From: Clostridia bacterium
GTDB lineage: Bacteria; Bacillota; Clostridia; UMGS1883
Reading direction: 5' to 3'
Assembly (NCBI GenBank): GCA_017411435.1
Contig: JAFQQD010000036.1
Span: 2,938-66,937 of the forward strand
Length of the DNA: 64,000 bases
The translations under genes and the position numbers were made by a program. The notes under the pieces are model-generated. The model was not told where the DNA came from and searched no databases. It saw only the letters and a list, made by a program, of their open reading frames with translations. Shown in pieces: positions 10,171 to 55,314 of this stretch (positions are counted from its first letter, which is position 1; every line of letters starts with the position of its first letter).

Positions 10171-10172
10171 TG

Positions 10173-23132: not shown

Positions 23133-25027
23133 AGGTCCTCAAGCTCCATATTGAGCGATTCCCATTCTTCAAGCATGGTTTCGTGCTCACTTTCTTTTTC
23201 TTCAAGCATCTTGCTCAGCGCAGTTATTTTTTCAAAATCACTTCCTGCACTGTTAATTTCATCGTGGAGATTTGCAATTTCAGTTTCGGTAGTTTCAATA
23301 GATTCTTCAAGGCGCTTTATTTTACCCTCAAGCTTTCGTCTGTCGCTTTGAAGTTTCTTTTGCTTTTGATAATCGTTAGGCTCTTTTTTCGTCTTCGGGG
23401 CTTCGGCAGTCTCTTTAACCGCAGGGGCGATTTTATTTATATAATCGTCATAATTCATATTGTATGAATTTACACTGCCGTTTTCAAAAGCGAGAATTTT
23501 ATCTGCCATTTTGTTAATAAGATAACGGTCGTGGCTGATGATAAATATAGTACCCTCAAAATCTTCAAGAGCCGTTTCAAGCGCTTCTTTAGAACGGATA
23601 TCAAGATGGTTTGTCGGTTCGTCAAGAAGCAAAAAGTTTGCGCCCGTAAGCATTATCTGAAGTAGTGAAAGGCGCGCTTTTTCACCGCCTGAGAGTGTGT
23701 CTGTCATCTTGAACACATCGTCTCCGCGGAACAAAAATGCGGCAAGGGCATTTCGGATTTGTGTGCGGTCCATACGGGGATAGGCGTCCCAGAGTTCGCT
23801 TTCCACATCTTTTCCGCCCGTTATATCGCTTCGGTCCTGGTCATAGTACGCGCAGTCTACATTTGTGCCGAAGAAAACGCTGTTATCGGGGGTTGGAATA
23901 ACTCCTTTTATCATTTTGTAAAGGGTCGATTTTCCACATCCGTTAGGGCCGAGAAGAAATACTCGCTCCCCTCTTTTTATTTCAAAATTCACATCCGAAA
24001 AAAGTTTTTTACCCTCGTATTCTTTTCCGAGATTTGTAACTTTCAGAACATCGTTCCCGCTTTTTCGCGAGGCAGAAAAACGGAAATGGATTTTAGATGT
24101 ATCTTCCTCGGGTTTTTCAAGCGTTTCCTCGAGGCGGTCAATACTTTTCTGCTTATGCTCTGCGGTACGGATATTGCGTTCGCGGTTCCATCTTTTTTGT
24201 TGTTCGATGATGCCCTCGATACGCTTTATCTCCGCCATTGTATTATCGTATTTCCTTTGCATCGCGAGTTTTACCTGCTGCTTCTTTTCAAGGAAAGTTG
24301 AGTAAGAACCCGTGTAGCACGAAATTTTTCTCTGTTCAAGCTCAATAGTTGTATTCGTTACGCGGTCAAGGAAATATCTGTCATGGCTGATTACGATAAA
24401 CGCCTTGTTGGTATTTCGTAAAAAGTCTTCAAGGTATCTTACCGAGTCAATATCAAGGTGGTTTGTCGGCTCGTCAAGGAGCAGGAAATTCGCTTCGGAA
24501 AGAAGGGTGCGCGCAAGCGAAAGCCGTGTTTTCTGTCCGCCAGAAAGCGACGCCATGGGAAGGTTTATTTCCGTTTCTGAAAAGCCAAGACCAAGAAGCA
24601 TACTGCGTGTACGCGCGCGGTATGTAAGCCCTTCTCCTCGTATATATTCGGTATTTAACGCCTCCTGTCTGTTTATGAGGCGCGCGGTATCGCCCTCTCC
24701 CTTTTCAAGCGCAAGGCGTATTATTTCCATTTCTTTTTCTATTTCAAAAAAGCGAGAAAAAACCTCGAGCGTATAGTCATACGCGGTAAGGCTGTCGCTC
24801 GATGGGGGTGTCTGCTCCATGACACCGATACGAAGGTCGGATGATTTTATGATGTCGCCTGTATGGTCTTCTTCGCCAAGTATTGTGCGAAAAAGCGTTG
24901 TCTTACCGACACCGTTGGAGCCTATAAATCCCATCTTTGTAGTATTTTCAATGTTAAATGAGACATTTTCAAAAAGCACTCTTTCTCCAAAGCTTTTTGA
25001 AACTTCTTTAAGCATTAATAAACTCAT
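23129..25027 (-). CDS. ABC-F family ATPase with two ABC domains and a C-terminal coiled coil, and no transmembrane domain.
   Basis: Two sets of Walker A, signature and Walker B motifs are present: GSNGVGKTT, LSGGQKTR and LLLDEPTNHLD. The tail is rich in K and E. Confidence 0.85.
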   Translation of the reverse strand: MSLLMLKEVSKSFGERVLFENVSFNIENTTKMGFIGSNGVGKTTLFRTILGEEDHTGDIIKSSDLRIGVMEQTPPSSDSLTAYDYTLEVFSRFFEIEKEMEIIRLALEKGEGDTARLINRQEALNTEYIRGEGLTYRARTRSMLLGLGFSETEINLPMASLSGGQKTRLSLARTLLSEANFLLLDEPTNHLDIDSVRYLEDFLRNTNKAFIVISHDRYFLDRVTNTTIELEQRKISCYTGSYSTFLEKKQQVKLAMQRKYDNTMAEIKRIEGIIEQQKRWNRERNIRTAEHKQKSIDRLEETLEKPEEDTSKIHFRFSASRKSGNDVLKVTNLGKEYEGKKLFSDVNFEIKRGERVFLLGPNGCGKSTLYKMIKGVIPTPDNSVFFGTNVDCAYYDQDRSDITGGKDVESELWDAYPRMDRTQIRNALAAFLFRGDDVFKMTDTLSGGEKARLSLLQIMLTGANFLLLDEPTNHLDIRSKEALETALEDFEGTIFIISHDRYLINKMADKILAFENGSVNSYNMNYDDYINKIAPAVKETAEAPKTKKEPNDYQKQKKLQSDRRKLEGKIKRLEESIETTETEIANLHDEINSAGSDFEKITALSKMLEEKESEHETMLEEWESLNMELEDL

Positions 25028-26268
25028 TTGTTATCCTCTGTCCTGAACATTCCCAGTTTTTCTGCCATTTTAATTCGTCTTGTAATTATGTCATTTTCTT
25101 TTGTAGCTTTTTCGGTTTTTGCCGTTTCCTTGCCCGAAGTTTTAAGAATAATCTGTATAAATCTGTGCACCCAACCGATGGGGAGTAGTATAGGGTGTTT
25201 TTCCACATAGGAAAAGCGCTCCTTAATTGCTTTTGGAGACGGAAAAATTATCGATAAGAGACTGCGCTCGCTTCTGAAAAGGCGGTACACAAGGTAACTG
25301 AGCGTGCCCTTGCCAGATCTTCTTTTCGTATAGATGCTGAAAAACTGTGCGCGTTCTTTTTCATTTTTCGCGAAAACTCCGCCGATTTCACAGTCTTCTA
25401 AAAGCTCATCGATGCCACTTCCATCACAAATGGCGTCGTCAAATTCCATACCCCAATATTTTACACCTATTCCCTTTATAACACGGATAAGAGTGTCATA
25501 GCCGAGTTTTTTCATAAGAGAATTGTATCTTTCCCAATCTATTCCTTCTTTATATTCCTGCATATAAAGAAGAAGGTCCATCATCTGTCTTACGCCGGTG
25601 GCATCGTTTACAAGGTGCTTGATAAGATGCGCAGAAAGATAGATAAGGTTATCCTGTATGCCGAGGGTATATATGCCGCTCTCAAGACGGTAAAATTCTT
25701 CGTTATAGCGTATTTCGTCATCTAAAATTATGTCGTTTGTGGGTGCGGAATGAAGTGCAACATGCACCTCCATAAGTCCGCCTGTTTTATGATACGCCTT
25801 CATATGGTGGTCGTATTTCGAACGCTCTTCACAATCGTAGCCGAGGCCCGCGAGGATTTTCACTGCTTTTTCCTCATCGTTTGCATCAATCAATATATCC
25901 ATATCACTTGAAACGCGTGTTTCGGGCATAGCGTAAAGACGCGCGATAGTGATACCTTTGAGCACAGCACATTTTATTCCGTTTTCTTCGAGTTTACGAA
26001 GCGAAGAAAGGTTAAACTCAATTTTCTGAATATTGAGCGCAACATTTGAAAGAAAAGTCTTTTCAAGTCCAGTATAAATTTCGGGCGGAATTTTAACTTC
26101 CCCTCTTTCTATTTTGGGGCGCACTCCACTATACACGACATCCCACACTTCCTGCATAAGGGATAATTCGCGCACTTTACTTAAGTTTTTACAATATTGG
26201 GTTTTAACCTCTTTGCCTAGCGCTGATGCACCAAAGAGGAGAAGCATATTTGTAAAATCCTGTGTCAT
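25024..26268 (-). CDS. Uncharacterised nucleotidyltransferase-fold protein.
   Basis: A pol-beta-like motif reads GITIARL...RVSSDMDILID. Confidence 0.55.
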   Translation of the reverse strand: MTQDFTNMLLLFGASALGKEVKTQYCKNLSKVRELSLMQEVWDVVYSGVRPKIERGEVKIPPEIYTGLEKTFLSNVALNIQKIEFNLSSLRKLEENGIKCAVLKGITIARLYAMPETRVSSDMDILIDANDEEKAVKILAGLGYDCEERSKYDHHMKAYHKTGGLMEVHVALHSAPTNDIILDDEIRYNEEFYRLESGIYTLGIQDNLIYLSAHLIKHLVNDATGVRQMMDLLLYMQEYKEGIDWERYNSLMKKLGYDTLIRVIKGIGVKYWGMEFDDAICDGSGIDELLEDCEIGGVFAKNEKERAQFFSIYTKRRSGKGTLSYLVYRLFRSERSLLSIIFPSPKAIKERFSYVEKHPILLPIGWVHRFIQIILKTSGKETAKTEKATKENDIITRRIKMAEKLGMFRTEDNK

Positions 26269-27275
26269 TAGTTTTCTCCGTAATATTCAAAATACCATTT
26301 TGCAAATTTCTTAAGTCCGTCTTCAATTGAGGTAGACGGCTTGAAATCAAAATCACGCTGAAGGTCTGTTACATCGGCATAGGTCTGATAAACATCGCCC
26401 ATTTGCATGGGAAGATATTCCTTCTGTGCGGTTTTGCCGATTGCCTTTTCAAGAGTTTCGATAAAATACATAAGCTTTTCAGGGTTGTTGTTACCTATAT
26501 TGTAAACCTTTGCAGCGTCGCCGTTTTCATCAGGCGCAGGTGGATTTAAGAGCATATTCATAATTCCCTGCACAATGTCGTCAACATAGGTAAAGTCGCG
26601 GTACATATCACCGTTGTTGAAAATTTTGATTGTTTCGCCCTTCATAATTTTCTTCGTGAAAGAAAAATATGCCATATCAGGTCTGCCGTAAGGGCCGTAA
26701 ACAGTAAAGAAACGAAGTCCCGTAGAGGGGAACTTATAAAGGTGGCTATATGTAAATGCCATAAGTTCGTTTGATTTTTTGGTTGCTGCATAAAGACTTA
26801 TGGGGTGGTCAACATTGTCTGTAGTTGAAAAAGGAGTTTTTTTCTGATTTCCGTAAACGGAAGAACTTGAAGCATAAATAAGATGCTCTGTTTTGTGATG
26901 TCGGCACGCCTCTAAAATGTTATAAAATCCGATAATATTGCTTTCGATATAAGCATCGGGATTATCAATAGAATAGCGCACGCCTGCCTGTGCCGCAAGG
27001 TTTACAATAATGTCGGGGGAATATGTTTCAAAAATATTCCAGACAGCACTTTTATCTGCAAGGTTTCCCTTTATGAATGTAAATTTCTCGTATTTGTTAA
27101 GGATTTCAAGTCGGCTTTCTTTAAGAGATACCTCGTAGTAATCGTTAAGATTGTCAAAGCCGATTACCTCCCCACCTTCTTCAAGAATTCTTTTGGACAG
27201 ATGAAAGCCGATAAAGCCTGCCGCGCCTGTAACGAGTATTTTTTTGCTTCCGTCATATTTTGTAAAGTTCGCCAT
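26268..27275 (-). CDS. NAD-dependent nucleotide-sugar epimerase, UDP-glucuronate 4-epimerase-like.
   Basis: Motifs GAAGFIG and YxxxK are present. The start was moved to MANFTKYDGSKKILVTG, which has an AGGAG site. Confidence 0.7.
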   Translation of the reverse strand: MANFTKYDGSKKILVTGAAGFIGFHLSKRILEEGGEVIGFDNLNDYYEVSLKESRLEILNKYEKFTFIKGNLADKSAVWNIFETYSPDIIVNLAAQAGVRYSIDNPDAYIESNIIGFYNILEACRHHKTEHLIYASSSSVYGNQKKTPFSTTDNVDHPISLYAATKKSNELMAFTYSHLYKFPSTGLRFFTVYGPYGRPDMAYFSFTKKIMKGETIKIFNNGDMYRDFTYVDDIVQGIMNMLLNPPAPDENGDAAKVYNIGNNNPEKLMYFIETLEKAIGKTAQKEYLPMQMGDVYQTYADVTDLQRDFDFKPSTSIEDGLKKFAKWYFEYYGEN

Positions 27276-27298
27276 AACTATGCTCCTGTCTATTTTTA

Positions 27299-28429
27299 TC
27301 AAAGGTCGATGCCGTCTGCCGTATGTGTGAAATGGATGCCGAATTTTCCTTCAAGTTGGGGAAATTCTTTAAGATATTTCTGTGTTACTTCATATTTTAT
27401 CTTTTCTTCAAATTCCGGGTTTACAAGCGCCATTGCACATCCCTTGAATCCTGCGCCACTGAATCTCCCACCGTATATCCCTTGGGTTTCTTTCATTATT
27501 TCGTGAATTTTTATGAGCTGAGGAGAGCCCGTCTCATAATTTTTTATACTGCTGTCTCCGCTTTCAAAGGAAAGCTTGCCAAACTCGGCTATATTGCCGT
27601 TTTTCCATGCTTCCTTACCTTTTATAACTCTTTCCATTTCCGAATAATAGTGCGTTGCCCTCTTTCTCCAGTTTTCGGGAAGTGCGTCTTTATAGTTTTC
27701 AAAAATCTCGCGCGGAACATCGCGGAGACGGGTATCTGAAAACTTGCCGTATTCCATACCTGAAAGTGCCTTGAGCATATATGCTGCGCTTTTAAGCTCA
27801 TCAACACGCATATTGAACTGACTGCCGACAAGACTTCTTTCAAGTCCGCTGAAAAATATTGCTATCTTAAACTGTGGCATATTTTTGCTTGCAGGAATAA
27901 GTTCATATGAGTCATCCTTCATATCGATATATAAAAGATTGTTTTTCTTTGAATATATTTCGCACGACTGGTCAAGTTTTCCGCAGCTTACACCAACAAA
28001 TTCATTTTCTGCCCAGAGTGCTGTCATAACCATTTCGTGCCGGGTAAGTTTTATATTATTAACACGGCAAAGTGCATTCAAGAATGCTATTATTACTGCT
28101 GCAGATGAAGATAATCCGCCTATGGGAAGACTGCCTTTTATATAAGCCTTTATTCCATAGGAAAGGTCGTGATTTCTTTTAAGAGAAGCAGTTGCTCCGC
28201 GCAGATAATCTGCCCAGTCATTTTCCTTTACAAGAGCTTTATTTACCTTGAACTCCACTTTCTTTTCAAAATCGCAGCTTTCAAGAAAGACTTTACCGTC
28301 ATCTGTTTTTTCATATTCAATTTCTATTCCTTTATTAATGGCAAAACCGCTTACAACTCCAAACTGATGGTCAATATGCGCACCTAAAGGACACACGCGG
28401 TAAGGGCAAAATGATATTTCTTTACTCAT
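27299..28429 (-). CDS. GHMP-family sugar 1-kinase, galactokinase-like.
   Basis: PYRVCPLGAHIDHQ is GalK-like. The ATP loop reads PIGGLSSSAAV. Confidence 0.7.
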   Translation of the reverse strand: MSKEISFCPYRVCPLGAHIDHQFGVVSGFAINKGIEIEYEKTDDGKVFLESCDFEKKVEFKVNKALVKENDWADYLRGATASLKRNHDLSYGIKAYIKGSLPIGGLSSSAAVIIAFLNALCRVNNIKLTRHEMVMTALWAENEFVGVSCGKLDQSCEIYSKKNNLLYIDMKDDSYELIPASKNMPQFKIAIFFSGLERSLVGSQFNMRVDELKSAAYMLKALSGMEYGKFSDTRLRDVPREIFENYKDALPENWRKRATHYYSEMERVIKGKEAWKNGNIAEFGKLSFESGDSSIKNYETGSPQLIKIHEIMKETQGIYGGRFSGAGFKGCAMALVNPEFEEKIKYEVTQKYLKEFPQLEGKFGIHFTHTADGIDL

Positions 28430-28458
28430 TTTTTCATTTTCCTTTTTTATTATTTATT

Positions 28459-29463
28459 TTAATCTTTTTTCGCTTTAAGAAGTTTTGTCTGCAACCGTTT
28501 TGAAGCAGGAATTTCAACAAATTTGTGAACAAGGTACGCCAAAGCAATCGAAGTGCCAATTGCCAAGGCAACTCCAAAGGGTTGTCCACCCCCCCTATTT
28601 TCCATTTTTTGGATAATGTTATAACCTATTTTTTGATGGATTAAGTAGAGAGGAAATGAAATAGATGCGAAGAAATTTAGTATGCCATCGTATTTGAATT
28701 TTATCCTTTTAACGATGAGAATATATATCAAGGCTGCTATAAAAATTGTGAAGATAAATCTGTTCAGAGGACGCTGAGTGTATTCAATTGCAAAGCATAA
28801 CAACAGGTTAACATATGCAAGATAATCTTTTTTATTTTTGTATATTGCACAAAATGACATACCGATGATGAATGCGCTTGCCCAGTCTGACAAAAGGATA
28901 AGTTTTGCTATGGTGTCTAAAGCGCCGTCTATTCCCAGAGCGGCAAAAAGTCCGTCCTGTAAAATGATAAGTACAAGCCAAATAGTTGACAAAATGGTAT
29001 AATTTCTTTTTTTGAGAAATAATGTGAGGGTTATGATGACATAAAACCACAATTCGCAACGAAGCGTCCAATAAGCACCATCAACACTGGGTATTCCCAC
29101 AAAGCCCTGAAGCATAGTGAAATTAAATATTGTTGATACAAGATCTGTTTTGAAGGGGAAGTTTAAGGCATATGTAACTATGGTAGTAAGTATTATGGCA
29201 ACCCAATATGACGGGTAGAGCCTTGTCACTCTTTTTACTGCAAACTTTTTCGGAGTAAGAGTGTCATTTACATTTGCCACGGTAAGAAATCCGCTGAGAA
29301 TAAAGAACACACTTACTGCCCAGCAGCCCCACCATACTCCGACATGGCTGCTCTCTGCACCCATATTATACAAACTATCAAAATATCTTGTTGTGTAATG
29401 ATAGAGCATAATTAAAATTGCGCCTACGCCTCGTATATAATTGAGTCCGTAATTTTTCTCCAT
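28459..29463 (-). CDS. Acyltransferase family 3 membrane O-acyltransferase.
   Basis: The product is polytopic. The ORF is 334 aa. Confidence 0.65.
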   Translation of the reverse strand: MEKNYGLNYIRGVGAILIMLYHYTTRYFDSLYNMGAESSHVGVWWGCWAVSVFFILSGFLTVANVNDTLTPKKFAVKRVTRLYPSYWVAIILTTIVTYALNFPFKTDLVSTIFNFTMLQGFVGIPSVDGAYWTLRCELWFYVIITLTLFLKKRNYTILSTIWLVLIILQDGLFAALGIDGALDTIAKLILLSDWASAFIIGMSFCAIYKNKKDYLAYVNLLLCFAIEYTQRPLNRFIFTIFIAALIYILIVKRIKFKYDGILNFFASISFPLYLIHQKIGYNIIQKMENRGGGQPFGVALAIGTSIALAYLVHKFVEIPASKRLQTKLLKAKKD

Positions 29464-29487
29464 AACATCACTTTCTTTCAGATTGTT

Positions 29488-30510
29488 TTATCGACTGTGT
29501 TTTTGTGGTATTGTGTTTACTATTTTTCCTGCTATTTTATTAAAGATAATTGCAAGCACAATTGAAACGGGGAATATCCACAAATAATAAGTGTATGGCG
29601 GATAATACAAGAGGTCATAATACTTTAATATACGGGTAATTGCATTATGTACAAGATAAAGCTCCAGAGAAAAGCCTCCGAAAAAGCAGAAGAATTTATA
29701 CATCCCCGTTTGAATCTTAAAACGCTTTATTTTTTCCATTACCCATGTAATTAGAATAATCATAGGTATAGTAATTACGGCATAAACAAATCTGTCATAC
29801 ATGATATTAAGAGTATGCGGAAACGAAGATTGCCACCATAACATCCCAATTAAAACTATTAACGACAATAAAATCTGCCAGCCCTTTATTTCACGGTTTT
29901 CTTTCACTGTGTCTGACATATATATTCCTGTTAAAATGATAGGAATTCTGGAAAGTGCTTTTTCTGAGTAGGTATAGATTCCTTTTTCGACAAGGAAAAT
30001 TTCAAGTGCCACACAGACTATACCCAGCAAAATGAGGTATCTTCGCTCCCTGCGATAGATTTTATAAAGGAGCGGATAAAAAACATACATTGCTGTTGCA
30101 AGGGAAACATACCAGAACGGAACCTTTGCCTTAATCCAGAAATTTATTGCAGTTGTATCAAGGATGAAGCAATGTATTCTTTCAAGTGTAATTCCCGTTA
30201 CACTGTCGCGCCACATATAATAAGGTACGCAAATTATAAGAAACGGTACCCAGAGTCTTATTATTCTGTTTTTGTAAAAATCCTTCAAAGAATTTTTTTC
30301 AATAGAATAACTAAGTCCCACTGCAGAAAGGAACATAAAAATGTCCACACCAATGTTACCAAGGCTCAAAAAACCCCTGAGTGCGCCCTCTCTGGGAACA
30401 CCTACCATAGCGCGGATATGGAAAAACACAATCCATACCGCAGCAAGCCCGAACAGGAATTCCCTATATTTCATTACATCTTTCCAGGTAAATTTAACAT
30501 TTTCGCTCAT
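29488..30510 (-). CDS. Acyltransferase family 3 membrane O-acyltransferase.
   Basis: The product is polytopic. The ORF is 340 aa. Confidence 0.65.
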   Translation of the reverse strand: MSENVKFTWKDVMKYREFLFGLAAVWIVFFHIRAMVGVPREGALRGFLSLGNIGVDIFMFLSAVGLSYSIEKNSLKDFYKNRIIRLWVPFLIICVPYYMWRDSVTGITLERIHCFILDTTAINFWIKAKVPFWYVSLATAMYVFYPLLYKIYRRERRYLILLGIVCVALEIFLVEKGIYTYSEKALSRIPIILTGIYMSDTVKENREIKGWQILLSLIVLIGMLWWQSSFPHTLNIMYDRFVYAVITIPMIILITWVMEKIKRFKIQTGMYKFFCFFGGFSLELYLVHNAITRILKYYDLLYYPPYTYYLWIFPVSIVLAIIFNKIAGKIVNTIPQKHSR

Positions 30511-30513
30511 AAA

Positions 30514-31533: not shown

Positions 31534-31538
31534 AATAA

Positions 31539-32411: not shown

Positions 32412-32417
32412 GTCCCC

Positions 32418-33503: not shown

Positions 33504-33523
33504 CTTATCTTTCCCCTTGTTTA

Positions 33524-34801: not shown

Positions 34802-34813
34802 AACTTCTCCTCC

Positions 34814-37582: not shown

Positions 37583-37588
37583 ATCTCC

Positions 37589-38794: not shown

Positions 38795-38798
38795 TATT

Positions 38799-42310: not shown

Positions 42311-42342
42311 TGGTAAAACCTCCGCAACTTATAATCAAGGGG

Positions 42343-44593: not shown

Positions 44594-44625
44594 CCAAATT
44601 CAATAAAGTAACTGTCTATGATAAA

Positions 44626-45915: not shown

Positions 45916-45939
45916 ACTAAAATGCTGATATCAAAAATG

Positions 45940-48245: not shown

Positions 48246-48250
48246 AGAGA

Positions 48251-49300
48251 TTAAGCCTCCAAAGATTTAAGTTCGTCCTGAATGTAAGAAAGTTCGAGGA
48301 GTTTTTCCTTAACTGCCTCAACATCTAAAAGGTCTGTATTGTTGGAATTAAATTCGGTCAGGGGGTTTCTGTCCTTATCCCCGTCCTTAAAATATTTGTC
48401 GTAGTTAAGGTCGCGCTTATCGGCAGGCACACGGTAGAAATCGCCCATATCGATTGCATTTGCACATTCCTCGTTTGTAAGGAGTGTTTCGTACATCTTT
48501 TCACCGTGGCGGATACCGATGATTTTGATTTGGCTCTTATTCTCTTTGTCAAAGAGTTCCTTTACTGCCTTAGCGAGCACTTCGATTGTGCAGGCAGGAG
48601 CCTTCTGCACCATAATGTCACCGCTTGTTGCATTTTCAAATGCGAAGAGCACAAGTTCAACCGCCTCTTCAAGTGACATTATAAAGCGTGTCATATTAGG
48701 TTCGGTAATGGTAATGGGTTCTCCCTTTTTAATCTGCTCTATCCACAGAGGAATAACAGAGCCTCTTGAACACATTACATTGCCATAACGGGTGCAGCAG
48801 ATGGATGTTTTTTCGGGAGAAACTGTTCTTGCTTTTGCAACGGCTACCTTTTCCATCATAGCCTTGGAAGTACCCATTGCATTAACGGGATATGCCGCCT
48901 TATCAGTTGAAAGGCAGATTACCTTCTCAACGCCAGCCTCAATTGCGGCGGAAAGTACATTGTCTGTACCGATAACATTCGTCTTTACTGCTTCAAGCGG
49001 AAAGAATTCACAGGAGGGAACCTGCTTGAGTGCTGCCGCGTGGAATATGTAGTCAACGCCGTACATCGCACCTTTGAGAGAATTATAATCTCTTACATCG
49101 CCGATAAAGAACTTGATTTTATTTGCCGCTTCTGGCATCTTTGCCTGAAATTCGTGGCGCATATCGTCTTGCTTTTTCTCATCACGCGAGAAAACGCGTA
49201 TTTCTTTAATATCGGTTTTAAGAAAGCGGTTTAATACTGCGTTACCGAAACTTCCCGTGCCGCCTGTTATAAGTAGTGTTTTTCCTGTAAATAAACTCAT
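48251..49300 (-). CDS. Cap5E/FnlA-type UDP-GlcNAc 4,6-dehydratase.
   Basis: The protein starts LLITGGTGSFGNAV. Confidence 0.8.
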   Translation of the reverse strand: MSLFTGKTLLITGGTGSFGNAVLNRFLKTDIKEIRVFSRDEKKQDDMRHEFQAKMPEAANKIKFFIGDVRDYNSLKGAMYGVDYIFHAAALKQVPSCEFFPLEAVKTNVIGTDNVLSAAIEAGVEKVICLSTDKAAYPVNAMGTSKAMMEKVAVAKARTVSPEKTSICCTRYGNVMCSRGSVIPLWIEQIKKGEPITITEPNMTRFIMSLEEAVELVLFAFENATSGDIMVQKAPACTIEVLAKAVKELFDKENKSQIKIIGIRHGEKMYETLLTNEECANAIDMGDFYRVPADKRDLNYDKYFKDGDKDRNPLTEFNSNNTDLLDVEAVKEKLLELSYIQDELKSLEA

Positions 49301-49320
49301 TCTTTATTCCTCCCGTGTGC

Positions 49321-50508
49321 TTATATATTTTCAATCAAATCGATAAAGTTCTCTTTGCAGATACCGTAGCCGAAGCTCTCTGAGCGCATCTTTGCAAGAC
49401 GCGCGTATTTTTCGCGAAGTTCTTTATCCTCTGTCATACGCTTCATGGCGGTGTAAAGGTGCTCTTCTGCCTCGGTAAGAGCTTCACTTTCCCATTCTTC
49501 CTCATTTTCAAGGGGCGTTGTGATTATGCCAAACTGCGCCTCCTCTACCCCGTTACTTACTGTATCAATGGGTGTATCGGGAGCAAGGATTTCCCTCGGG
49601 CCTGATTTACAGTCTGCCGCAATTATGGGAAGCGAGCATACCATAGCCTCAGTCATAGAATTGGGGAAGCCTTCAAAAAGTGAGGAAAGGACATATATAT
49701 CCGATTTGGCTATGAATGAAAACGGGTTGGGGTGTCTGTCGGTAAGGACTATACTGTCCTCCAGGTTAAACTTTTGTATGAGATTAACTACCTTTTCGTC
49801 TATCTGTCCTACCATAATAAGTGCGGTGTTTTCGTTTTCCCCGTGCAATTTTCTGAATGCTTTTATAAGGTGCCAGTAACCTTTCTGATACATTTGGCGT
49901 CCGACTGTGATAAAGGTTATCTTCCCCTCTGTCTTTGAAAGGTTATAGTCACATTCCTTTTTCATTTGCTCTTCGATTTCAGCTATATCGTAGGGGTTAT
50001 AGATTACTTTCAGTTTTTCTTTCGGGATGTTGTAATTTTTTATATAGAGGTCTTCGATAACTTTTGTAACGGGAACAACTTTGTCTGCCCTTTTATAAAG
50101 CATTTTATAAAGTGCGTTTGTGATTTTGCCCAAGAGACTGCCTCTGTTTTCGGATGCGGAGTAGTTGCGGATTGAAACTGCGCTTTTGCATCCTTTCACC
50201 TTTGACAGAATGTTAACCATATTGGGACTGTCAAGGAAGCTTATAACACAGTCAAGTTTTAATTCCTTCTTTTTCTTTCTGAGTTTTCTTATTCTTTCAA
50301 GAAGGAGTAAAACCTTGGAAAGTGCGCCACTTTTTGCAGGAGCGTCAAGGTTTACAAGAGTTCCGCCGTGGTCGTATTCCATATATGTATCCTCAAACAA
50401 AATTACATAGATGTTATATTTGTCTTCAAGGATTTTGGATACTCTTGACACTACTCTTTCTGCGCCGCCGCTATTAAGTTCGGATATGAGAAGACCAATG
50501 TTTTTCAT
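49321..50508 (-). CDS. Family-4 glycosyltransferase.
   Basis: The product is 395 aa and GT4-like. Confidence 0.75.
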   Translation of the reverse strand: MKNIGLLISELNSGGAERVVSRVSKILEDKYNIYVILFEDTYMEYDHGGTLVNLDAPAKSGALSKVLLLLERIRKLRKKKKELKLDCVISFLDSPNMVNILSKVKGCKSAVSIRNYSASENRGSLLGKITNALYKMLYKRADKVVPVTKVIEDLYIKNYNIPKEKLKVIYNPYDIAEIEEQMKKECDYNLSKTEGKITFITVGRQMYQKGYWHLIKAFRKLHGENENTALIMVGQIDEKVVNLIQKFNLEDSIVLTDRHPNPFSFIAKSDIYVLSSLFEGFPNSMTEAMVCSLPIIAADCKSGPREILAPDTPIDTVSNGVEEAQFGIITTPLENEEEWESEALTEAEEHLYTAMKRMTEDKELREKYARLAKMRSESFGYGICKENFIDLIENI

Positions 50509-50519
50509 AGCGTTATCCT

Positions 50520-51074
50520 TTAATAGTTATTCTTCTTTGCAAGAAGTTCTTTTACTGTTTCTTCGTCAAAACGCATTTTTATAACTTTTGCAGGGATTCC
50601 GCCGACATAGGAAAACGGGGGAACACTCTTTGATACTACTGCACCTGCCGCAACAACTGCACCATATCCGATAGTTACACCTTTTAAGATTGTACTGTTT
50701 GCGCCAATCCAGTTATCACCTTCAAAAATGACATCCTGATCGTCTTCGGGGCGCTTATCACTATCGGTGAAATTTGTCATATAGCGTCCGGGAATATCGG
50801 TAATGTGGTTTCCCGTAACAACCGATACCTGGGGCGCGAACATGACATGGTCACCAACGATGATTTTTGCCCTTGTGGTAAGGAACATACACCGCTCGCC
50901 GATTGAAACATCGTTTCCCACTGATACATTTTCCCATCCGCTGACATCAAAACCGCGTCCAAATGATACATCCTTACCACAGGAGGCCATCATTTTCTTT
51001 TTCATTGGAGTAGCTATGAATTTATTCCACGCTCTGGGAAACAGACTTGCAAATTTGTATATTGCTTTTAACAT
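50520..51074 (-). CDS. Hexapeptide-repeat acetyltransferase.
   Basis: Left-handed beta-helix repeats are present. Confidence 0.8.
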   Translation of the reverse strand: MLKAIYKFASLFPRAWNKFIATPMKKKMMASCGKDVSFGRGFDVSGWENVSVGNDVSIGERCMFLTTRAKIIVGDHVMFAPQVSVVTGNHITDIPGRYMTNFTDSDKRPEDDQDVIFEGDNWIGANSTILKGVTIGYGAVVAAGAVVSKSVPPFSYVGGIPAKVIKMRFDEETVKELLAKKNNY

Positions 51075-51075
51075 A

Positions 51076-52116
51076 TTACGCCTCGCTATAAATTTCTAAA
51101 AGAGTTTTAAGCACGGTTTCGCTTAAATATTCGCGCTTTACTTTTTCAAGATTGTGATGTGCCATTTTTACCCTTACATCCTGGGGTTTTATTTTTTCAA
51201 CTGCATCTTTTATGCTGTCTGAGTCTTTGAGTTTAATGAGAATTCCGCCCTCTTTTTCAATCATATCGGGCACGGAGCCTACGGGGGTGGAAATTATGGG
51301 AAGGCCGCACGCCATCGCTTCAAGGATGACAAGCGGAAAGCCTTCGGAATAAGACGGGAGAATGAGCGCGTCCATATTTTTAAGGATTTCCAAAACCTTA
51401 TCGTGTGATTTTGGTCCAACTTTTATAATGTTTTCCGCATCGCAGTTGCCGAGGAGATTATTCTCATCAGGACCGATGATGTGGATATTGATGTCTTCTA
51501 TCCCCTTTGATGCTTCAAGGAGTTCCAAAACGCCTTTATCCTCGGTCACTCTGCCGACAAAGGCAATGTCTTTCAGTTCTTGCCTTACGCTTGCCTCATC
51601 GACACAAACCTTTTCAATAAAGTTGGGGATGATAAGTGCCTTATCCGTATATTTCTGCGCGAAAGAAAGTGAGTTTGCGTTAAGCGCAAGAATCTTTTTT
51701 GAAATTCGGCAGATTACCTTAAAGAAAAATTTCGCTACGGGGTTATTTACATTCGTGTCAAGATTGCAGTGACAATGATAGATAATATCCGCCTTTTTAC
51801 GAAGGGAGAAAAGTATCACTGTATCCCTGATAAGCCCCATGGTAAAGCACGATGCGTTGTAATGAAGAGTCCTGGTATCCTCAGTTTTGAGAAATGCCTT
51901 TATCTTTTTTTTAATAGCAAGTGCTCTTTTGATTTCGTCTGCTATATTTACTTTTTTATCGTTATTTACCCTTTCTCCGACAATGCCTGAGTTTACGAGC
52001 AAAACCTCACACCCAAGTTGAGGCATCCTTTCCATAACCTCTTGTGTCCACGAGGATATGCCGCCAATCGGTGGGGGAAGCGGAGAAACTAAAATAAGTT
52101 TATTTACACTTTCCAT
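51076..52116 (-). CDS. Family-4 glycosyltransferase.
   Basis: The product is 346 aa. Confidence 0.75.
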   Translation of the reverse strand: MESVNKLILVSPLPPPIGGISSWTQEVMERMPQLGCEVLLVNSGIVGERVNNDKKVNIADEIKRALAIKKKIKAFLKTEDTRTLHYNASCFTMGLIRDTVILFSLRKKADIIYHCHCNLDTNVNNPVAKFFFKVICRISKKILALNANSLSFAQKYTDKALIIPNFIEKVCVDEASVRQELKDIAFVGRVTEDKGVLELLEASKGIEDINIHIIGPDENNLLGNCDAENIIKVGPKSHDKVLEILKNMDALILPSYSEGFPLVILEAMACGLPIISTPVGSVPDMIEKEGGILIKLKDSDSIKDAVEKIKPQDVRVKMAHHNLEKVKREYLSETVLKTLLEIYSEA

Positions 52117-53338
52117 TACACAAATTCTCCATTACGGTCACATACGCACCTGCGCATATTTCTTTTGTTGCGTTTTTCTCAACATATTCGCGAAGGTTTA
52201 TATCCTCTCCTTCGCCGTTTTTCCATTTTGTGTATTTTCTTTCGATTGCGTCTGCCAGAAGTTTAGCATCTCCTGCAGCAACACATTCGCCTGCGTTTGA
52301 TGCACGGAGCATTTCCGCAAGGTCACTTTCTGTATCAAAGGACGCAATTATAGGAGTATTGCACGCCATGATGCTCCAGGTCTTACTCGGGAAACTTGCA
52401 CCGCCTGTTCCCTCTTTACAAGTTATCAGCGAAACATCTCCGAGAGAATAAACCTCGGAAACACGCGATTGAGGAAGAAGCGGGTTTATGATGACATTGG
52501 AAAGACTTTGCGCCTCATTTTTTGCGTCTTCAAAATATGAGCCGCCGCCAAAAATTACGAACTGTATTTCGCGGTTTTCTTCAAGTTCCTTTGCCGCCTT
52601 GAGCACGATGTCTGCACCCTGTGCCGCACCGAAATTACCTGCATAGACTACAAGGAACTTATCTTTATCAACACCGAATTCGTCAATAATTGTATTTTTT
52701 TCGCGTTCAACGGGATAAACATTATCAATGTTAACCCAGTTTGAAATCATTTCTATCTTTTCTGCCGGAACACCTTTGCGCAGAAGGTTCTTTCTGATAC
52801 CTTTGCTGATAGTTACAATCACATCGACCTTTTTATAGGTGTACTTTTCAAGGATTCTTCCTGCGCGCCATATGAGGCTTCCCTCTTTTGTCATTTTTGC
52901 ATTTACGAGAGAGTCGGGGAAAACATCCTGAAGTGAATAGACAATCGAGCATTTTAATTTTTTCTTGAGCATTGACATCAGAAGCCCCTGCGTGGGAGGT
53001 GTGCTTTCGGAAAAAAGCATATCTATACCCTTGTATTTTTTGCCTATCTGATACCCTCTGAAGTTACACCAGAAATAGCGAAATGCTCTCGAGAGAATAT
53101 TACTTTTTTCTTTTGGCACCCAAAAACGCTCAATCTCTATTTTTCCGTCCATGAGTGTTTCGTGCTTTATATGTCGGTACTTTTCCTGGGTTTCTTTATC
53201 AATTCCTCTTTGAGGTATGGGACATATTACTTTTAATTCGTGCCCACGCTCAATGAGAGAATTAATGATGTCGTTTTCAAGATGTGTAAACGCTGTTATT
53301 TCTGGATTAAAATATGCGTCGGGAATTAAAACCCTCAT
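52100..53338 (-). CDS. Family-4 glycosyltransferase.
   Basis: The product is 412 aa. Confidence 0.7.
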   Translation of the reverse strand: MRVLIPDAYFNPEITAFTHLENDIINSLIERGHELKVICPIPQRGIDKETQEKYRHIKHETLMDGKIEIERFWVPKEKSNILSRAFRYFWCNFRGYQIGKKYKGIDMLFSESTPPTQGLLMSMLKKKLKCSIVYSLQDVFPDSLVNAKMTKEGSLIWRAGRILEKYTYKKVDVIVTISKGIRKNLLRKGVPAEKIEMISNWVNIDNVYPVEREKNTIIDEFGVDKDKFLVVYAGNFGAAQGADIVLKAAKELEENREIQFVIFGGGSYFEDAKNEAQSLSNVIINPLLPQSRVSEVYSLGDVSLITCKEGTGGASFPSKTWSIMACNTPIIASFDTESDLAEMLRASNAGECVAAGDAKLLADAIERKYTKWKNGEGEDINLREYVEKNATKEICAGAYVTVMENLCNGKCK

Positions 53339-53358
53339 TTGCTTTTCCTCCGTTAGTT

Positions 53359-54099
53359 TCAGGCAACGGGAAGTTTCTCTTCCTCTGCCTTCTTTTCTGC
53401 GTCCTTGAATTCAACACCGACTACTGCAAGGACGGTCATTATCATAAGTTTTATATCGTAAAAGAAACTGAATTTTTCTATGTACGCGAGGTTGTATGCC
53501 ATTTTGCCGGGAAGGACTTCCTCGACATATGTATCGTCTGCGTTTTCTGCGGCGGAGAGAAGCTTATCCTCATCCTTGTAGAAAATGCTTGCAAGCGATG
53601 TTACGCCTGCCGGAAGAAGGAGTGTGGCGTTCATCTCGTCAGTATATCTGTCAACATACTTCTGCACCTCGGGACGGGTGCCGACAAAACTCATATCGCC
53701 TGTCAATATATTTATAAGCTGTGGTGTTTCGTCAAGACGGAACTTTCTGAGAAATGCACCAACGCGTGTTATTCGGGGGTCGTGGTTTACGGTTACGAGC
53801 GTCCCTATCTTGTCAGCGTTTACAACCATTGTACGGAATTTGAATATGCGGAATATTTTGCCGTAAGTTGTAACGCGCTCCTGTCTGTAAAAGACAGGCC
53901 CCTTTGAATCAAGTTTAATTGATATGGCAAGGATTAAGTATAGCGGTGACAAAATGATAATCGCAATAAGTGCCACTGTGAAGTCAAATATTCTTTTTAC
54001 AATAATACTTGTTTTTCTTTTCTGCAGTTTTTCGTAATATGTACTCACTTCTTCGCTCTGAAGAAAATCGGGGAGTGCGGCATACTTTTTAAGTATCAC
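53359..54099 (-). CDS. Small priming sugar-phosphate transferase of the PglC/WbaP C-terminal-domain type.
   Basis: The product is 246 aa with one N-terminal transmembrane segment and the motif RPEVQKY. Confidence 0.85.
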   Translation of the reverse strand: MILKKYAALPDFLQSEEVSTYYEKLQKRKTSIIVKRIFDFTVALIAIIILSPLYLILAISIKLDSKGPVFYRQERVTTYGKIFRIFKFRTMVVNADKIGTLVTVNHDPRITRVGAFLRKFRLDETPQLINILTGDMSFVGTRPEVQKYVDRYTDEMNATLLLPAGVTSLASIFYKDEDKLLSAAENADDTYVEEVLPGKMAYNLAYIEKFSFFYDIKLMIMTVLAVVGVEFKDAEKKAEEEKLPVA

Positions 54100-54105
54100 T
54101 GTATA

Positions 54106-55314
54106 TCAACCTTTCAGAAGTCTGGTAAATGTTTCCGCCACAAGCCTTGCATCGTCAAGTGTCATTTTCGTATTGAGCGGAAGCGAAATTTCGTTTTCAA
54201 ACTGTGCGTAAGCATTGGGGAAATCCTTGATATCAAAGCCCAGATTTTTATACGCAGTATGCATCGGTAGGGGCTTGTAGTGAACATTGCACATAATGCC
54301 TTCCTCTGCCATCCTTATGATAAGTTCGTTTCTGAACGAGCTGTCTTCCCCATTAAGACGAACAAGGTACAAATGCCCGTCTGAGAGAAAATCTTCGCCG
54401 TGATGGTGGAGATACTGTACATCAAGGCTACTCATTGCCTCGTCATAAATTCCAACGATTTCGTGGCGTTTTTCTAAGATTGAGTCATACCTGTCAAGTT
54501 GAGCCTGTCCGATTGCCGCCATAATGTCGGTCATATTGCATTTATACGCAGGAGAAACGATGTCATATTCCCACGCTCCAACCTGAGTTTTCGCAAGTGC
54601 ATCCTTACTCTGACCGTGAAGTGAAAGGAGCATATATTCGCGGTAAATGTCATCGTTTGAAATGCCGTTGATATTTCTCCAAGTAACTGCGCCACCCTCG
54701 GCAGTTGTAAGGTTTTTTACTGCGTGGAAAGAGAATGATGTAAAGTCAGCAATGCTACCTGCCATCTTCCCTTTCTGCATTGAGCCGAAACTGTGCGCAC
54801 CGTCTGCAAGAACTGCAATTCGTCCCATTTTCTTTTGAATGTCGTTTGACGGTCTGAAGATATTTTTCTTCGATTCCACAACACTGAAGATTTTTTCGTA
54901 GTCGCAGATAACACCGCCGAGGTCAACGGGGATTATGGCTTTTGTCCTGTCAGTTATAAGCTTACCCAGTGCGTCATAATCCATCTCAAAAGAATCCTTT
55001 TTCGTGTCGCAAAGAACAAGTTTTGCGCCGACATGCACTGCAACACTTGCTGACGCTGTATATGTATATGCCGAAGTGATTACCTCGTCCCCTTCGCCTA
55101 TTCCGAGAAGACGCAAAGTAAGTTCCATAGCTGCTGTTGCAGAGTTAAGACATACTGCCCTGTCAGTACCGCAATATGTCGCAATTTCCTTTTCGAACTG
55201 CTTTGTTTTGGGACCTGTTGTAATCCATCCGCTGCGCAAAACTTCTGATACTGCATCTATCTCGGCCTGTGTGATATCGGGGGGAGAAAAGGGAACTTTT
55301 ACTGACATTTTCAT
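54106..55314 (-). CDS. DegT-family aminotransferase, PglE-like. It is the first gene of the locus.
   Basis: The product is 402 aa. The motif is FSFHAVKNLTTAEGG. Confidence 0.85.
   Translation of the reverse strand: MKMSVKVPFSPPDITQAEIDAVSEVLRSGWITTGPKTKQFEKEIATYCGTDRAVCLNSATAAMELTLRLLGIGEGDEVITSAYTYTASASVAVHVGAKLVLCDTKKDSFEMDYDALGKLITDRTKAIIPVDLGGVICDYEKIFSVVESKKNIFRPSNDIQKKMGRIAVLADGAHSFGSMQKGKMAGSIADFTSFSFHAVKNLTTAEGGAVTWRNINGISNDDIYREYMLLSLHGQSKDALAKTQVGAWEYDIVSPAYKCNMTDIMAAIGQAQLDRYDSILEKRHEIVGIYDEAMSSLDVQYLHHHGEDFLSDGHLYLVRLNGEDSSFRNELIIRMAEEGIMCNVHYKPLPMHTAYKNLGFDIKDFPNAYAQFENEISLPLNTKMTLDDARLVAETFTRLLKG

Follow-up and report, generated by a model that had tools for sequence, protein, structure and literature searches.

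A predicted surface-glycan cluster of a rumen Clostridia bacterium with two separate enzyme sets that probably attach amino acids to the polymer

The model systems for teichuronopeptide and poly-gamma-glutamate are those of alkaliphilic Bacillus and PgsBCA/CapBCA, the latter with PgsB, PgsC and an anchored CapA. Work of the Raushel laboratory is said to describe the use of phospho-amines in Campylobacter jejuni, followed by a phosphatase. Cj1438 of C. jejuni ligates ethanolamine phosphate or serinol phosphate, and through its C-domain, which amidates C6 of GlcA, TupA-like enzymes are proven as uronic-acid amidoligases (PMC11800379). The peptide epimerase MslH has a one-metal site (PMC10406935) and epimerises a C-terminal residue, and an epimerase role was proposed for CapA (PMC10406935, PMC8179263). 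In O antigens, N-acetyl-aminoacyl and D-amino-acid amides are known (PMC7685785). WbqC, next to dTDP-Qui4N genes, carries the annotation of a glycine transferase (PMC7253198).

The 30-kb cluster described here (25024-55314) lies in a stretch of 64 kb, the window, from a metagenome-assembled genome of an uncultured organism and is known from its genes alone. The analysis assigned domains and folds, looked at the conservation of catalytic residues and at gene fusions, and compiled gene-neighbourhood statistics. Domains were called with Pfam and NCBIfam, the minus-strand ORFs of the cluster (28/28) bear the assignments set out below, and the product is predicted to be a repeat-unit surface sugar polymer. 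The domain content bears out the surface-glycan locus proposed in the preliminary description, and the domains listed there were matched by the searches: a Cap5E/F/G route to UDP-L-FucNAc, RfbA/RfbB with a DegT aminotransferase for a dTDP-4-amino-6-deoxyhexose, a PglC-like primer with a PglE-like aminotransferase, two tandem Wzy-like paralogues, a CapA/PgsA-family protein, a UDP-GlcA 4-epimerase-like enzyme, a GHMP sugar kinase and a GNAT. The ATP-grasp and TupA family assignments also stood, and exactly three ATP-grasp ligases (34814, 37589 and 42343) were found where three to four had been counted. These three genes split into two independent modules, A and B. Overall, we consider it moderately probable that the cluster makes a Wzx/Wzy repeat-unit heteropolysaccharide or protein-linked glycan with two independent cytoplasmic amide-forming decoration modules.

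The genes for priming and sugar precursors, with a promoter-like site before them, were as follows.
55362-55390, minus strand: promoter-like site, 48 nt ahead of the first gene
54106-55314, minus strand: DegT aminotransferase, PseC/PglE-like (PF01041, 7.6e-91), first gene of the array
53359-54099, minus strand: PglC-type small polyprenyl-phosphate phosphoglycosyl transferase (Bac_transf), 246 aa (PF02397, 5e-60)
48251-49300, minus strand: FnlA/Cap5E homologue (TIGR04130 FnlA, 522 bits, under the cutoff of 730)
47097-48245, minus strand: FnlB/Cap5F homologue, WbcJ-like (WbcJ-type reductase, 372 bits, under 500)
45940-47097, minus strand: FnlC/Cap5G homologue, 2-epimerase (wecB-type, 225 bits, over 210)
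32418-33560, minus strand: DesI-like DegT 4-aminotransferase (NCBIfam)
31539-32411, minus strand: RmlA (462 bits, over the equivalog cutoff)
30514-31533, minus strand: RmlB (497 bits, over the cutoff)

The promoter-like site (TTGACT-17-TATATT with an upstream TG, 10/12 matches) is a consensus match only, and the count of such sites across the region was not above that in shuffles. At the other end, the array continues unbroken into an ABC-F gene (23129-25027), so 25024 is a functional and not a transcriptional border. The first DegT enzyme (NCBIfam PseC, 295 bits, under the cutoff of 423) probably makes the 4-amino sugar for the primer transferase, which has two TM-like segments, and the pair is kept at ~60% identity in three Ruminococcus flavefaciens loci. 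A retaining 4,6-dehydratase that could serve the primer sugar was absent, which counts against the main reading. From their matches, the FnlA, FnlB and FnlC homologues would form a UDP-L-FucNAc branch and the DesI-like DegT, RmlA and RmlB a dTDP-4-amino-4,6-dideoxyhexose branch.

Assembly and O-acylation would be carried out by the following genes.
52100-53338, 51076-52116 and 49321-50508, minus strand: three GT4 glycosyltransferases (Pfam, NCBIfam)
50520-51074, minus strand: hexapeptide acyltransferase (Pfam, NCBIfam)
44626-45915 and 43190-44593, minus strand: tandem Wzy_C paralogues (PF04932, 1e-18 and 3e-19)
40243-41211, minus strand: GT2 glycosyltransferase (PF00535, 7.7e-25)
38799-40253, minus strand: Wzx-type MOP flippase (PF13440, 1e-90)
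28459-30510, minus strand: two Acyl_transf_3 membrane O-acyltransferases (PF01757, 1e-31 and 1e-25)

The GT4-Hexapep-GT4 block was also found in a Clostridium perfringens and a Cohnella locus. The Wzy_C paralogues are 53% identical over 418 residues, their full length, and are either polymerases or O-antigen-ligase-like enzymes; in related loci Wzy_C is single-copy. The preliminary description took the duplication as a hint at two linkages or two polymers. That the glycan is no capsule or wall polysaccharide but is transferred to an S-layer protein, flagellin or other surface protein by one of the paralogues is unlikely. Wzy_C is the O-antigen ligase/O-oligosaccharyltransferase family, the best NCBIfam match of Wzx is an 'O-glycosylation flippase' (284 bits) and one Wzy_C weakly matches a putative O-glycosylation ligase model, but both matches are far under their cutoffs. 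No chain-length regulator (Wzz/CpsCD) or LCP ligase gene was found in the 64-kb window, which favours protein transfer and was counted against the main reading, and an SLH-domain protein of 952 aa, encoded at 15057-17915, may be taken in the same direction. However, the identity between the paralogues suggests that they share one activity, and relatives with a single Wzy_C show the classic GT-Wzy-...-Wzx polymer layout.

Module A and the trio of genes that includes the UDP-GlcA 4-epimerase-like SDR comprised the following.
42343-43281, minus strand: TupA-like ATP-grasp amidoligase (PF14305, 2.9e-65, model positions 1-240 of 241)
41198-42310, minus strand: CapA/PGA_cap-fold protein, MslH-like metalloenzyme (PF09587, 3e-51)
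27299-28429, minus strand: GHMP kinase of the galactokinase family (2CZ9 galactokinase, 1.6e-49)
26268-27302, minus strand: SDR, UDP-GlcA 4-epimerase-like (5U4Q, 6e-119; BcUGAepi 6ZL6, 2.7e-50)
25024-26268, minus strand: NTP_transf_5 protein (domain match)

The TupA-like ligase most likely starts at 43245, which gives 300 aa in line with the gene callers, and shares 61% identity with an 'ATP-grasp fold amidoligase' of C. perfringens. Together with the soluble CapA-fold protein it forms a conserved gene pair: of 58 informative metagenome loci, 43 have TupA on the same strand as PGA_cap and no more than 2.5 kb upstream of it, and in 31 of these 43 (31/58) the two genes abut. Wzy-TupA fusions occur in two loci, and cultured Bacillus and Cohnella carry Wzy-TupA-PGA_cap along with Ugd and an epimerase. 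TupA co-occurs with UGAepi (Fisher p = 0.0014), and all PGA_cap loci bearing Ugd (10/10) carry TupA. Amidation of uronic acids, which had been proposed for the ATP-grasp enzymes of the locus in general, is supported for the TupA-like ligase, since UDP-GlcA 4-epimerase and Ugd genes accompany module A, but not for AG1 and AG2, which belong to a dTDP-sugar cassette (below). The last three genes listed form a translationally coupled trio (25024-28429), in which the SDR is closest to solved UDP-GlcA 4-epimerases and conserves Y149, K153, T178 and R185; Arg185 of BcUGAepi binds the carboxylate (PMC12338863). No solved relative was found for the NTP_transf_5 protein. A UDP-sugar 6-dehydrogenase (UDP-Glc or UDP-HexNAc), which adjoins the epimerase in relatives, was absent from the 64-kb window, and this counts against the main reading, in which a supply of uronic acid is presumed.

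The closest solved structure to the CapA-fold protein is MslH (Foldseek E 6e-19 with the AF2 model, pLDDT 86), and in alignments its D8, E47, N87, H88, D91, H181 and H215 fall on residues that serve MslH in catalysis and metal binding; the equivalent of MslH His261 is uncertain, the second alignment stretch scoring 8.6 bits. It is proposed from these predicted matches that the protein tailors an amide-linked amino acid, with epimerisation as the favoured reaction. Behind the 61%-identical TupA of C. perfringens, an AlaDh_PNT enzyme fills the PGA_cap slot. Alternatively, the CapA-fold protein could be a metallophosphoesterase which removes phosphate from a phospho-amine ligated by TupA. The calcineurin-like fold, its conserved metal-site residues and the C. 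jejuni route of phospho-amines followed by a phosphatase (PMC11800379) agree with this, but motif I lacks the canonical His, motif II has Glu as in MslH, the MslH match surpasses that to any phosphatase (3e-9 or worse) by ten orders of magnitude and no phospho-amine-making enzyme was identified beside the TupA/PGA_cap pair. This role is improbable, and tailoring of the amino acid is preferred.

The adjacent TupA-like and PGA_cap domains and the UGAepi-like SDR had suggested a teichuronopeptide- or poly-gamma-glutamate-like polymer, a polyuronic acid whose peptide or poly-gamma-glutamate chain would be made or put in place by the homologues of TupA and CapA. This claim was not sustained and is now very improbable. 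Homologues of PgsB (Mur-ligase-type) and PgsC were absent anywhere in the window, no TM segment or membrane anchor was found in the CapA-fold protein, and in place of a PGA synthetase assembly the locus has a full heteropolymer set of phosphoglycosyl transferase, four glycosyltransferases, Wzx and Wzy. In addition, the TupA/PGA_cap pair sits in ordinary Wzy loci of many taxa.

Module B and the genes around it were as follows.
37589-38794, minus strand: ATP-grasp AG2, L-amino-acid-ligase type (ATP-grasp_4, Dala_Dala_lig_C, LAL_C2)
36614-37582, minus strand: X, a divergent DegT-like PLP-dependent enzyme by predicted fold, the module core
36099-36626, minus strand: GNAT N-acetyltransferase, PseH-like (PF13302, 1e-20)
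34814-36124, minus strand: second, divergent ATP-grasp AG1 (CPSase_L_D2, ATP-grasp_4)
33524-34801, minus strand: CitMHS/DASS anion permease (PF03600, 2.5e-48; TIGR00785, 135 bits)

The ORF of X, a third DegT-like enzyme of the locus, was missing from the preliminary description. X is a member of an unannotated family with 1,410 representative clusters at E≤1e-30, and is fused to GNAT and to ATP-grasp domains in some proteins. Pfam, NCBIfam and PDB sequence searches gave no match. Its AF2 model (pLDDT 87.6) matched ArnB, perosamine synthase, DesV and WecE in Foldseek (E ~1e-12, probability 1.0), and hhalign aligned K141 with the PLP-lysine of DegT and D120/Q123 with its D-A-A-H motif, at a probability of only 23%; the putative homology to DegT rests mainly on the predicted fold.

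Both ATP-grasps matched 4DIM (AG2 1e-29, AG1 2.5e-14) and the L-amino-acid ligase 3VOT (1e-18 for AG2), and AG1 is 23-33% identical to its counterparts. Of 80 X loci, 68 contain AG2, which was scored as lying directly upstream of X in at least 57, and in other X loci a WbqC or FemAB-like gene takes its place. Downstream of X, AG1 was found in 31/80 and GNAT in 19/80 loci, giving a cassette of [AG2 / WbqC / FemAB-like]-X-[AG1 / GNAT]. The GNAT (TIGR03585 PseH, 75 bits, under the cutoff of 93) is a probable capping enzyme for a free amine. Wzx lay upstream of AG2-X in 53/80 loci, and a DesI-like DegT accompanied X in 67/80, RmlA in 30/80 and RmlB in 28/80; module B is tied to the dTDP-4-amino-6-deoxyhexose branch, not to uronic acid. 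Since AG1, AG2 and X genes were absent from the 80 TupA/PGA_cap loci, the two modules are independent. It is highly unlikely that AG2, X, GNAT, AG1 and the permease make a small molecule that stays free and has nothing to do with the glycan, for example an N-acetyl dipeptide-like compound. The resemblance of AG1 and AG2 to L-amino-acid ligases, makers of free dipeptides, and the presence of a permease might suggest it. Against it stand the flanking genes just named, the exchange of AG2 with WbqC, for which there is a link to Qui4N glycylation (PMC7253198), and the predicted sugar-aminotransferase fold of X. The permease, previously described as SLC13-type and as a possible importer of the acyl or amino donor, was confirmed as CitMHS/DASS; it also follows AG1 in three other loci, and with four loci in which it neighbours an ATP-grasp gene, donor supply is plausible.

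For the favoured glycan pathway, we infer all substrates, the reaction sequence and the polymer; the arrangement of the genes is no proof of the order of reactions. The PglC-type transferase would prime undecaprenyl phosphate. The priming sugar is probably a 4-amino-HexNAc whose synthesis involves the adjacent DegT, and the three GT4 and one GT2 enzymes would lengthen the repeat unit. Likely sugars include L-FucNAc, a dTDP-derived 4-amino-4,6-dideoxyhexose and GalA/GlcA, the latter by way of the UDP-GlcA 4-epimerase. The unit would receive O-acyl groups, with Wzx as its flippase, and the two Wzy_C paralogues would handle it. In module A, the TupA-like ligase would activate the C6 carboxylate of the uronic acid and join it to an amine, for which an amino acid is the likeliest candidate, after which the abutting CapA-fold enzyme may invert the alpha-carbon of this amino acid from L to D with the free carboxylate kept. 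In module B, AG2 would transfer an aminoacyl group onto the dTDP-sugar at its 4-amino group, X would act on or create a side-chain amine, and GNAT and AG1 would then cap or extend the side chain, AG1 possibly with a carboxylate imported by the permease. The earlier proposal of amide-linked amino-acid decoration is retained as the best reading, and two separate enzyme sets, widespread yet uncharacterised, probably attach amino acids to the polymer.

The region from 25024 to 55314 was filled by 28 tightly packed minus-strand ORFs, and all domain assignments made for it in the preliminary description were confirmed by Pfam and NCBIfam. Where three to four ATP-grasp ligases had been counted, the ATP-grasp genes proved real and exactly three were present (AG1, AG2 and a TupA-like gene). 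They were located in two gene modules:

Module A
42343-43281 (-), TupA-like ATP-grasp ligase (start at 43245 according to gene callers)
41198-42310 (-), soluble CapA-fold protein (PGA_cap)
Module B
37589-38794 (-), AG2, ATP-grasp ligase
36614-37582 (-), X, protein without a Pfam model
36099-36626 (-), GNAT
34814-36124 (-), AG1, ATP-grasp ligase
33524-34801 (-), DASS permease

AG1 and AG2 were closest to the structural-genomics protein 4DIM and the L-amino-acid ligase BL00235 (PDB 3VOT), their closest solved relatives, which likewise have an ATP-grasp fold and a LAL_C2-like C-terminus, whereas the context in the window implies a sugar-nucleotide amine instead of a free amino acid as acceptor. 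A total of 80 genome loci bearing X were fetched from Ruminococcus albus, R. flavefaciens, Faecalibacterium, Blautia, Sellimonas, Selenomonas, Phascolarctobacterium, Treponema and others, and the genes accompanying X were as follows:

Genes accompanying X in the 80 fetched loci
AG2 near X: 68/80
AG2 scored as immediate upstream neighbour of X: at least 57/80
DesI-like DegT near X: 67/80
Wzx near X: 53/80
RmlA near X: 30/80
RmlB near X: 28/80
AG1 directly downstream of X: 31/80
GNAT directly downstream of X: 19/80

In loci without AG2, the slot upstream of X was occupied by WbqC (6/6 tested, E 1e-64 to 1e-72) or, in Dorea, by a FemAB-family protein. FemAB enzymes use aminoacyl-tRNA as the donor of the transferred amino acid. 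The shared position of AG2, WbqC and FemAB therefore indicated a single slot filled by three unrelated types of amide-forming enzyme. In the Dorea MAGs (L036, L047 and L037) the gene order leading to X was DegT, polysaccharide pyruvyl transferase, radical-SAM protein, FemAB-like protein and X, which is a third cassette variant with a radical-SAM enzyme. WbqC is annotated as a putative glycine transferase next to dTDP-Qui4N genes in Shewanella (PMC7253198) and also occurs in operons with a dedicated ProRS and tRNA (PMC10404621).

Judged by its gene context, the module B cassette would attach an N-(acyl)aminoacyl group to the amine at C4 of a dTDP-4-amino-4,6-dideoxyhexose, much like the N-acetylglycyl-Qui4N of E. 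coli O121 and further amino acids found in amide linkage in O antigens (PMC7685785). The dTDP-Qui4N N-(N-acetylglycyl) pathway (Shigella dysenteriae 7, E. coli O121 and Shewanella; VioA and WbqC), in which the sugar amine is aminoacylated and then N-acetylated, has RmlA, RmlB and a 4-aminotransferase in common with the window, and its WbqC was the enzyme found in the AG2 position of the six related loci. In contrast to this pathway, the window has an ATP-grasp in place of WbqC, plus X, a second ATP-grasp and a permease. A literature search turned up no paper that connects ATP-grasp enzymes with Qui4N, viosamine or Fuc4N. By their conserved context, AG1 and AG2 were assigned to the amino-sugar branch and not to uronic acid, and the earlier proposal of uronic-acid amidation by all three ATP-grasps was not supported. 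The DASS permease was found after AG1 in the window and in three other loci (L013, L017 and L071), a placement that fits import of a carboxylate donor.

For X itself (36614-37582 (-)), no Pfam or NCBIfam match at E≤1e-3 (including PF01041) and no PDB sequence match was obtained, and all its database copies were named "hypothetical protein". A word-indexed search produced more than 5,000 homologues, and a profile search over 1.84 billion sequences gave 1,410 representatives at E≤1e-30. The AlphaFold model of X (pLDDT 87.6) matched ArnB, GDP-perosamine synthase, DesV, WlaRG and WecE at E about 1e-12 and probability 1.0 in Foldseek. The profile-profile alignment of X with DegT was weak (probability 23%, E 9e-4) yet colinear across 288 columns; in it, K141 fell on the Schiff-base lysine of DegT and D120/Q123 fell on the D-A-A-H motif. 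K141 and D120 were invariant in the family and aligned with K201 and D172 of the DegT of the locus. The model thereby points to X as a cryptic fold-type-I PLP enzyme with a predicted Schiff-base lysine and PLP-binding aspartate, and transamination or epimerisation at the side-chain alpha-carbon are its candidate reactions. A truncated pseudogene was rejected since the family was full-length and conserved, with invariant PLP residues. Fusions of X with GNAT (P0313, P0316 and P0356) and with an ATP-grasp (P0347, 757 aa) were also identified, and these partners were the same two enzyme kinds that follow X in gene order.

The assembly genes formed a Wzx/Wzy-type set with a PF02397 phosphoglycosyl transferase, a PF13440 Wzx flippase and two PF04932 proteins. 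The latter Wzy_C proteins (43190-44593 and 44626-45915) were 53% identical over their full length and were regarded as a lineage-specific tandem duplication because related loci have one copy. RmlA and RmlB scored above their equivalog cutoffs and the DesI-type DegT scored 321 bits, below the cutoff of 650; a putative dTDP-4-amino-4,6-dideoxyhexose pathway was accordingly represented by RmlA, RmlB and a 4-aminotransferase. The three adjacent FnlABC/Cap5EFG genes, with FnlA (522 bits) and FnlB (372 bits) below their equivalog cutoffs and the 2-epimerase above, point to a probable L-FucNAc route. The first two genes of the array, a PseC-like DegT and a PglC-type transferase, were a conserved pair and imply a 4-amino-HexNAc primer. 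No retaining 4,6-dehydratase was present in the locus, and FnlA may therefore feed both branches. The scanned ORFs of the 64-kb window included neither a chain-length regulator (tyrosine kinase) nor an LCP or WaaL enzyme for attachment, and chain-length and attachment genes may sit elsewhere in the genome. The "O-glycosylation" matches of Wzx and one Wzy_C were weak; together with the lack of a chain-length regulator or LCP gene in the window, they make protein glycosylation a possible fate of the glycan.

The SDR of the window (26268-27302) matched 5U4Q at 6e-119 and the Bacillus cereus UDP-GlcA 4-epimerase (6ZL6) at 2.7e-50; literature on 5U4Q produced nothing beyond the deposit name. In the alignment with 6ZL6, Y149, K153, T178 and R185 were kept and T126 was replaced by Ser. 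In the B. cereus enzyme, Arg185 binds the carboxylate with a Ser/Thr network (PMC12338863). The residues retained by the SDR are thus those of a predicted UDP-glucuronic acid 4-epimerase. The UDP-sugar 6-dehydrogenase Ugd was absent from the window, and Ugd-like ORFs flanked the homologue of this epimerase in 14 loci. Translational coupling linked a galactokinase-like GHMP kinase to the epimerase and an NTP_transf_5 protein; for the latter, no solved relative and no significant PDB sequence match was found. With low confidence, the trio may represent a uronic-acid salvage route in place of the missing Ugd; confidence is low since NTP_transf_5 does not count among the known sugar-1-phosphate nucleotidylyltransferase folds and the specificity of the kinase is unreadable from sequence.

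The TupA-like protein of module A scored 220.6 bits against PF14305 (cutoff 25; model positions 1-240 of 241), and nothing significant was obtained in a PDB sequence search. In GenBank this amidoligase (42343-43245 (-); P0435) is named "glycosyl transferase", a misannotation. A metagenome scan with the PGA_cap alignment produced 80 loci, of which 52 had a TupA homologue. In the 58 loci whose upstream DNA extended for 1 kb or more, TupA was on the same strand within 2.5 kb upstream in 43 and abutting or overlapping in 31. None of the 80 PGA_cap loci had AG1, AG2 or X, which showed that modules A and B are independent. A single ORF (L136:3771-5963 and L154:3771-5963) encoded a Wzy-like membrane protein fused to a TupA-like ATP-grasp domain, which suggests a ligase working at the membrane beside the polymerase. 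Among cultured organisms, Bacillus sp. Marseille-P3661 and Cohnella also had the block GT4-Wzy-TupA-PGA_cap-Wzx, close to Ugd and an SDR epimerase gene. Among the X loci, a homologue at least 50% identical to the window SDR was present in 4/8 with TupA against 3/72 without TupA (p = 0.0014), and all ten Ugd-bearing PGA_cap loci had TupA. In C. jejuni Cj1438, amidoligase activity on GlcA C6 has been proven for the C-terminal TupA-like domain (PMC11800379). Given the co-occurrence with the epimerase and Ugd and the analogy with Cj1438, the TupA-like gene, and this gene alone, is best read as amidating a uronic acid.

The C. jejuni HS:2 locus (Cj1435-1437 and Cj1438) is similar in having a TupA-like ATP-grasp in a surface-glycan locus, a uronic-acid carboxylate as target and companion enzymes that prepare or finish the amine. 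It differs in that Cj1438 carries the ligase as a domain of a polymerising glycosyltransferase, with a HAD phosphatase as partner and ABC-transporter-dependent export, whereas the window ligase is a stand-alone protein of 300 aa with an MslH-like CapA-fold partner in a Wzx/Wzy-type locus of a Firmicute. The C. perfringens capsule locus (L173, CP148694.1) shares the phosphoglycosyl transferase, FnlABC, GT4-Hexapep-GT4, Wzy, TupA and SDR epimerase, but has Ugd, a single Wzy and no module B. At 10001-11948 of this locus, the TupA (61% identical) was followed by an AlaDh_PNT-family enzyme with no PGA_cap in the slot, which fits a slot that holds amino-acid-tailoring enzymes.

The CapA-fold protein is labelled a poly-gamma-glutamate protein in databases, a name corrected here. 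No TM-like segment was found in it (top 19-residue hydropathy 0.91) and the domain started from residue 1. MslH, a lasso-peptide C-terminal Trp epimerase (PDB 8GQ9), was its only solved relative and best structural match, at about 17% identity and from a RiPP cluster instead of a glycan locus. MslH is a Ca-dependent epimerase of the C-terminal residue of a peptide (PMC10406935), and CapA itself has been proposed as an epimerase (PMC8179263). MslH has the catalytic dyads His88/Asp91 and His295/Asp11 and the metal ligands Glu44, Asn87, His259 and His261; seven of these eight residues (all except His261) aligned with D8, E47, N87, H88, D91, H181 and H215 of the window protein, and His261 aligned with Gly183 in a weak 8.6-bit stretch, which makes its equivalent uncertain. 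Once amide-linked to a uronic acid, an amino acid is N-acylated while its carboxylate stays free, and this chemical likeness to the C-terminus of a peptide favours L-to-D epimerisation. Ligation by TupA would come first and the CapA-fold protein would then invert the amino acid from L to D, a tentative reading held at somewhat under an even chance. The main rival is a phosphatase acting on a phospho-amine amide. Against it, the AlphaFold model (pLDDT 86.2) was far nearer to MslH (E 6e-19, TM 0.65) than to phosphatases (3e-9 or worse, TM ≤0.46).

The proposed analogy with teichuronopeptide or poly-gamma-glutamate was not supported. PF09587 and PF14305 are common to the window and to Bacillus PgsBCA/CapBCA and B. 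halodurans TupA/teichuronopeptide. However, the window ORFs of 120 aa or longer had no PgsB/CapB amide ligase or PgsC/CapC domain, the CapA-fold protein is cytoplasmic instead of membrane-anchored, and the polymer would be made from lipid-linked repeat units. A genetic content of heteropolymer GTs and Wzx/Wzy without a PGA synthetase argues against a polyglucuronate-polyglutamate copolymer.

The window originated from a metagenome-assembled Clostridia bacterium of ruminant gut samples (proteins GenBank MBQ30228xx), and identical contigs were found in XIEF21 assemblies. The flanks are housekeeping genes typical of Firmicutes, with a PolC-type polymerase, GcpE, an SLH-domain protein, Lgt and M16 peptidases on one side and trpS, a TagO/WecA-like transferase, MnaA and the atp operon on the other. 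Two ORFs without Pfam match and a small Big_2-domain protein (6844-7623 (-), 8142-8864 (-) and 9143-9763 (-)) adjoined the PolC gene. The SLH protein (952 aa, 15057-17915 (-)) and the TagO/WecA-like and MnaA genes (56963-59168 (+)) hint at a secondary cell-wall polymer anchoring SLH proteins. The G+C content was 0.35-0.39 at 28000-30000, 34000-38000 and 40000-46000 and 0.42-0.44 in the flanking housekeeping DNA, a contrast that would fit acquisition of the decoration and Wzy segments by horizontal transfer. The array continued unbroken into an ABC-F ATPase gene (23129-25027 (-)), whose 4-nt overlap with the last glycan gene (NTP_transf_5) suggests that housekeeping genes are co-transcribed with the array. 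A 13-bp-stem hairpin followed by a T-run (22079-22107), just past the last co-directional gene (Ham1/RdgB), stood alone as a strong terminator-like site behind the 33-kb run of minus-strand genes; the sites in the promoter and terminator scans were no more numerous than in shuffled sequence, and operon boundaries were weakly supported. A divergent intergenic region of 620 bp (55315-55934) separated the array from trpS. No RNA element was detected with Rfam anywhere in the window, the region upstream of trpS included, with no T-box or other family at gathering score in 55315-55934, and a search for trpS neighbours retrieved the same locus alone.

Amino acids in amide linkage, among them D-forms and N-acetyl-aminoacyl groups, often serve as antigenic determinants on bacterial surface glycans. 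To our knowledge, the enzymes that install amide-linked amino acids on these glycans are mostly unknown. The general idea of an amino-acid-decorated glycan was supported by the gene context, with all substrates and products inferred, and what makes the system valuable is its pair of conserved but uncharacterised decoration modules, together with a PLP-enzyme family that lacks annotation. The locus unites two conserved cassettes abundant in gut and rumen Firmicutes, exposes a PLP-enzyme family of more than 1,400 representative clusters with no Pfam model, and gives cytoplasmic CapA-fold proteins a specific role that can be tested. Experiments are feasible in the cultured carriers Bacillus sp. 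Marseille-P3661, Cohnella, Ruminococcus albus and R. flavefaciens and, for the TupA slot, in Clostridium perfringens. The joint reading, in which TupA-paired soluble CapA-fold enzymes are MslH-type L-to-D epimerases acting after ligation and X transaminates or epimerises the aminoacyl side chain, and not the ring, of an NDP-4-aminoacylamino sugar, is considered unlikely to hold as a whole. If true, two uncharacterised and very widespread enzyme families would represent new glycan-decoration chemistry, and the CapA-fold epimerases would explain D-amino acids in bacterial glycans, such as D-allo-threonine.
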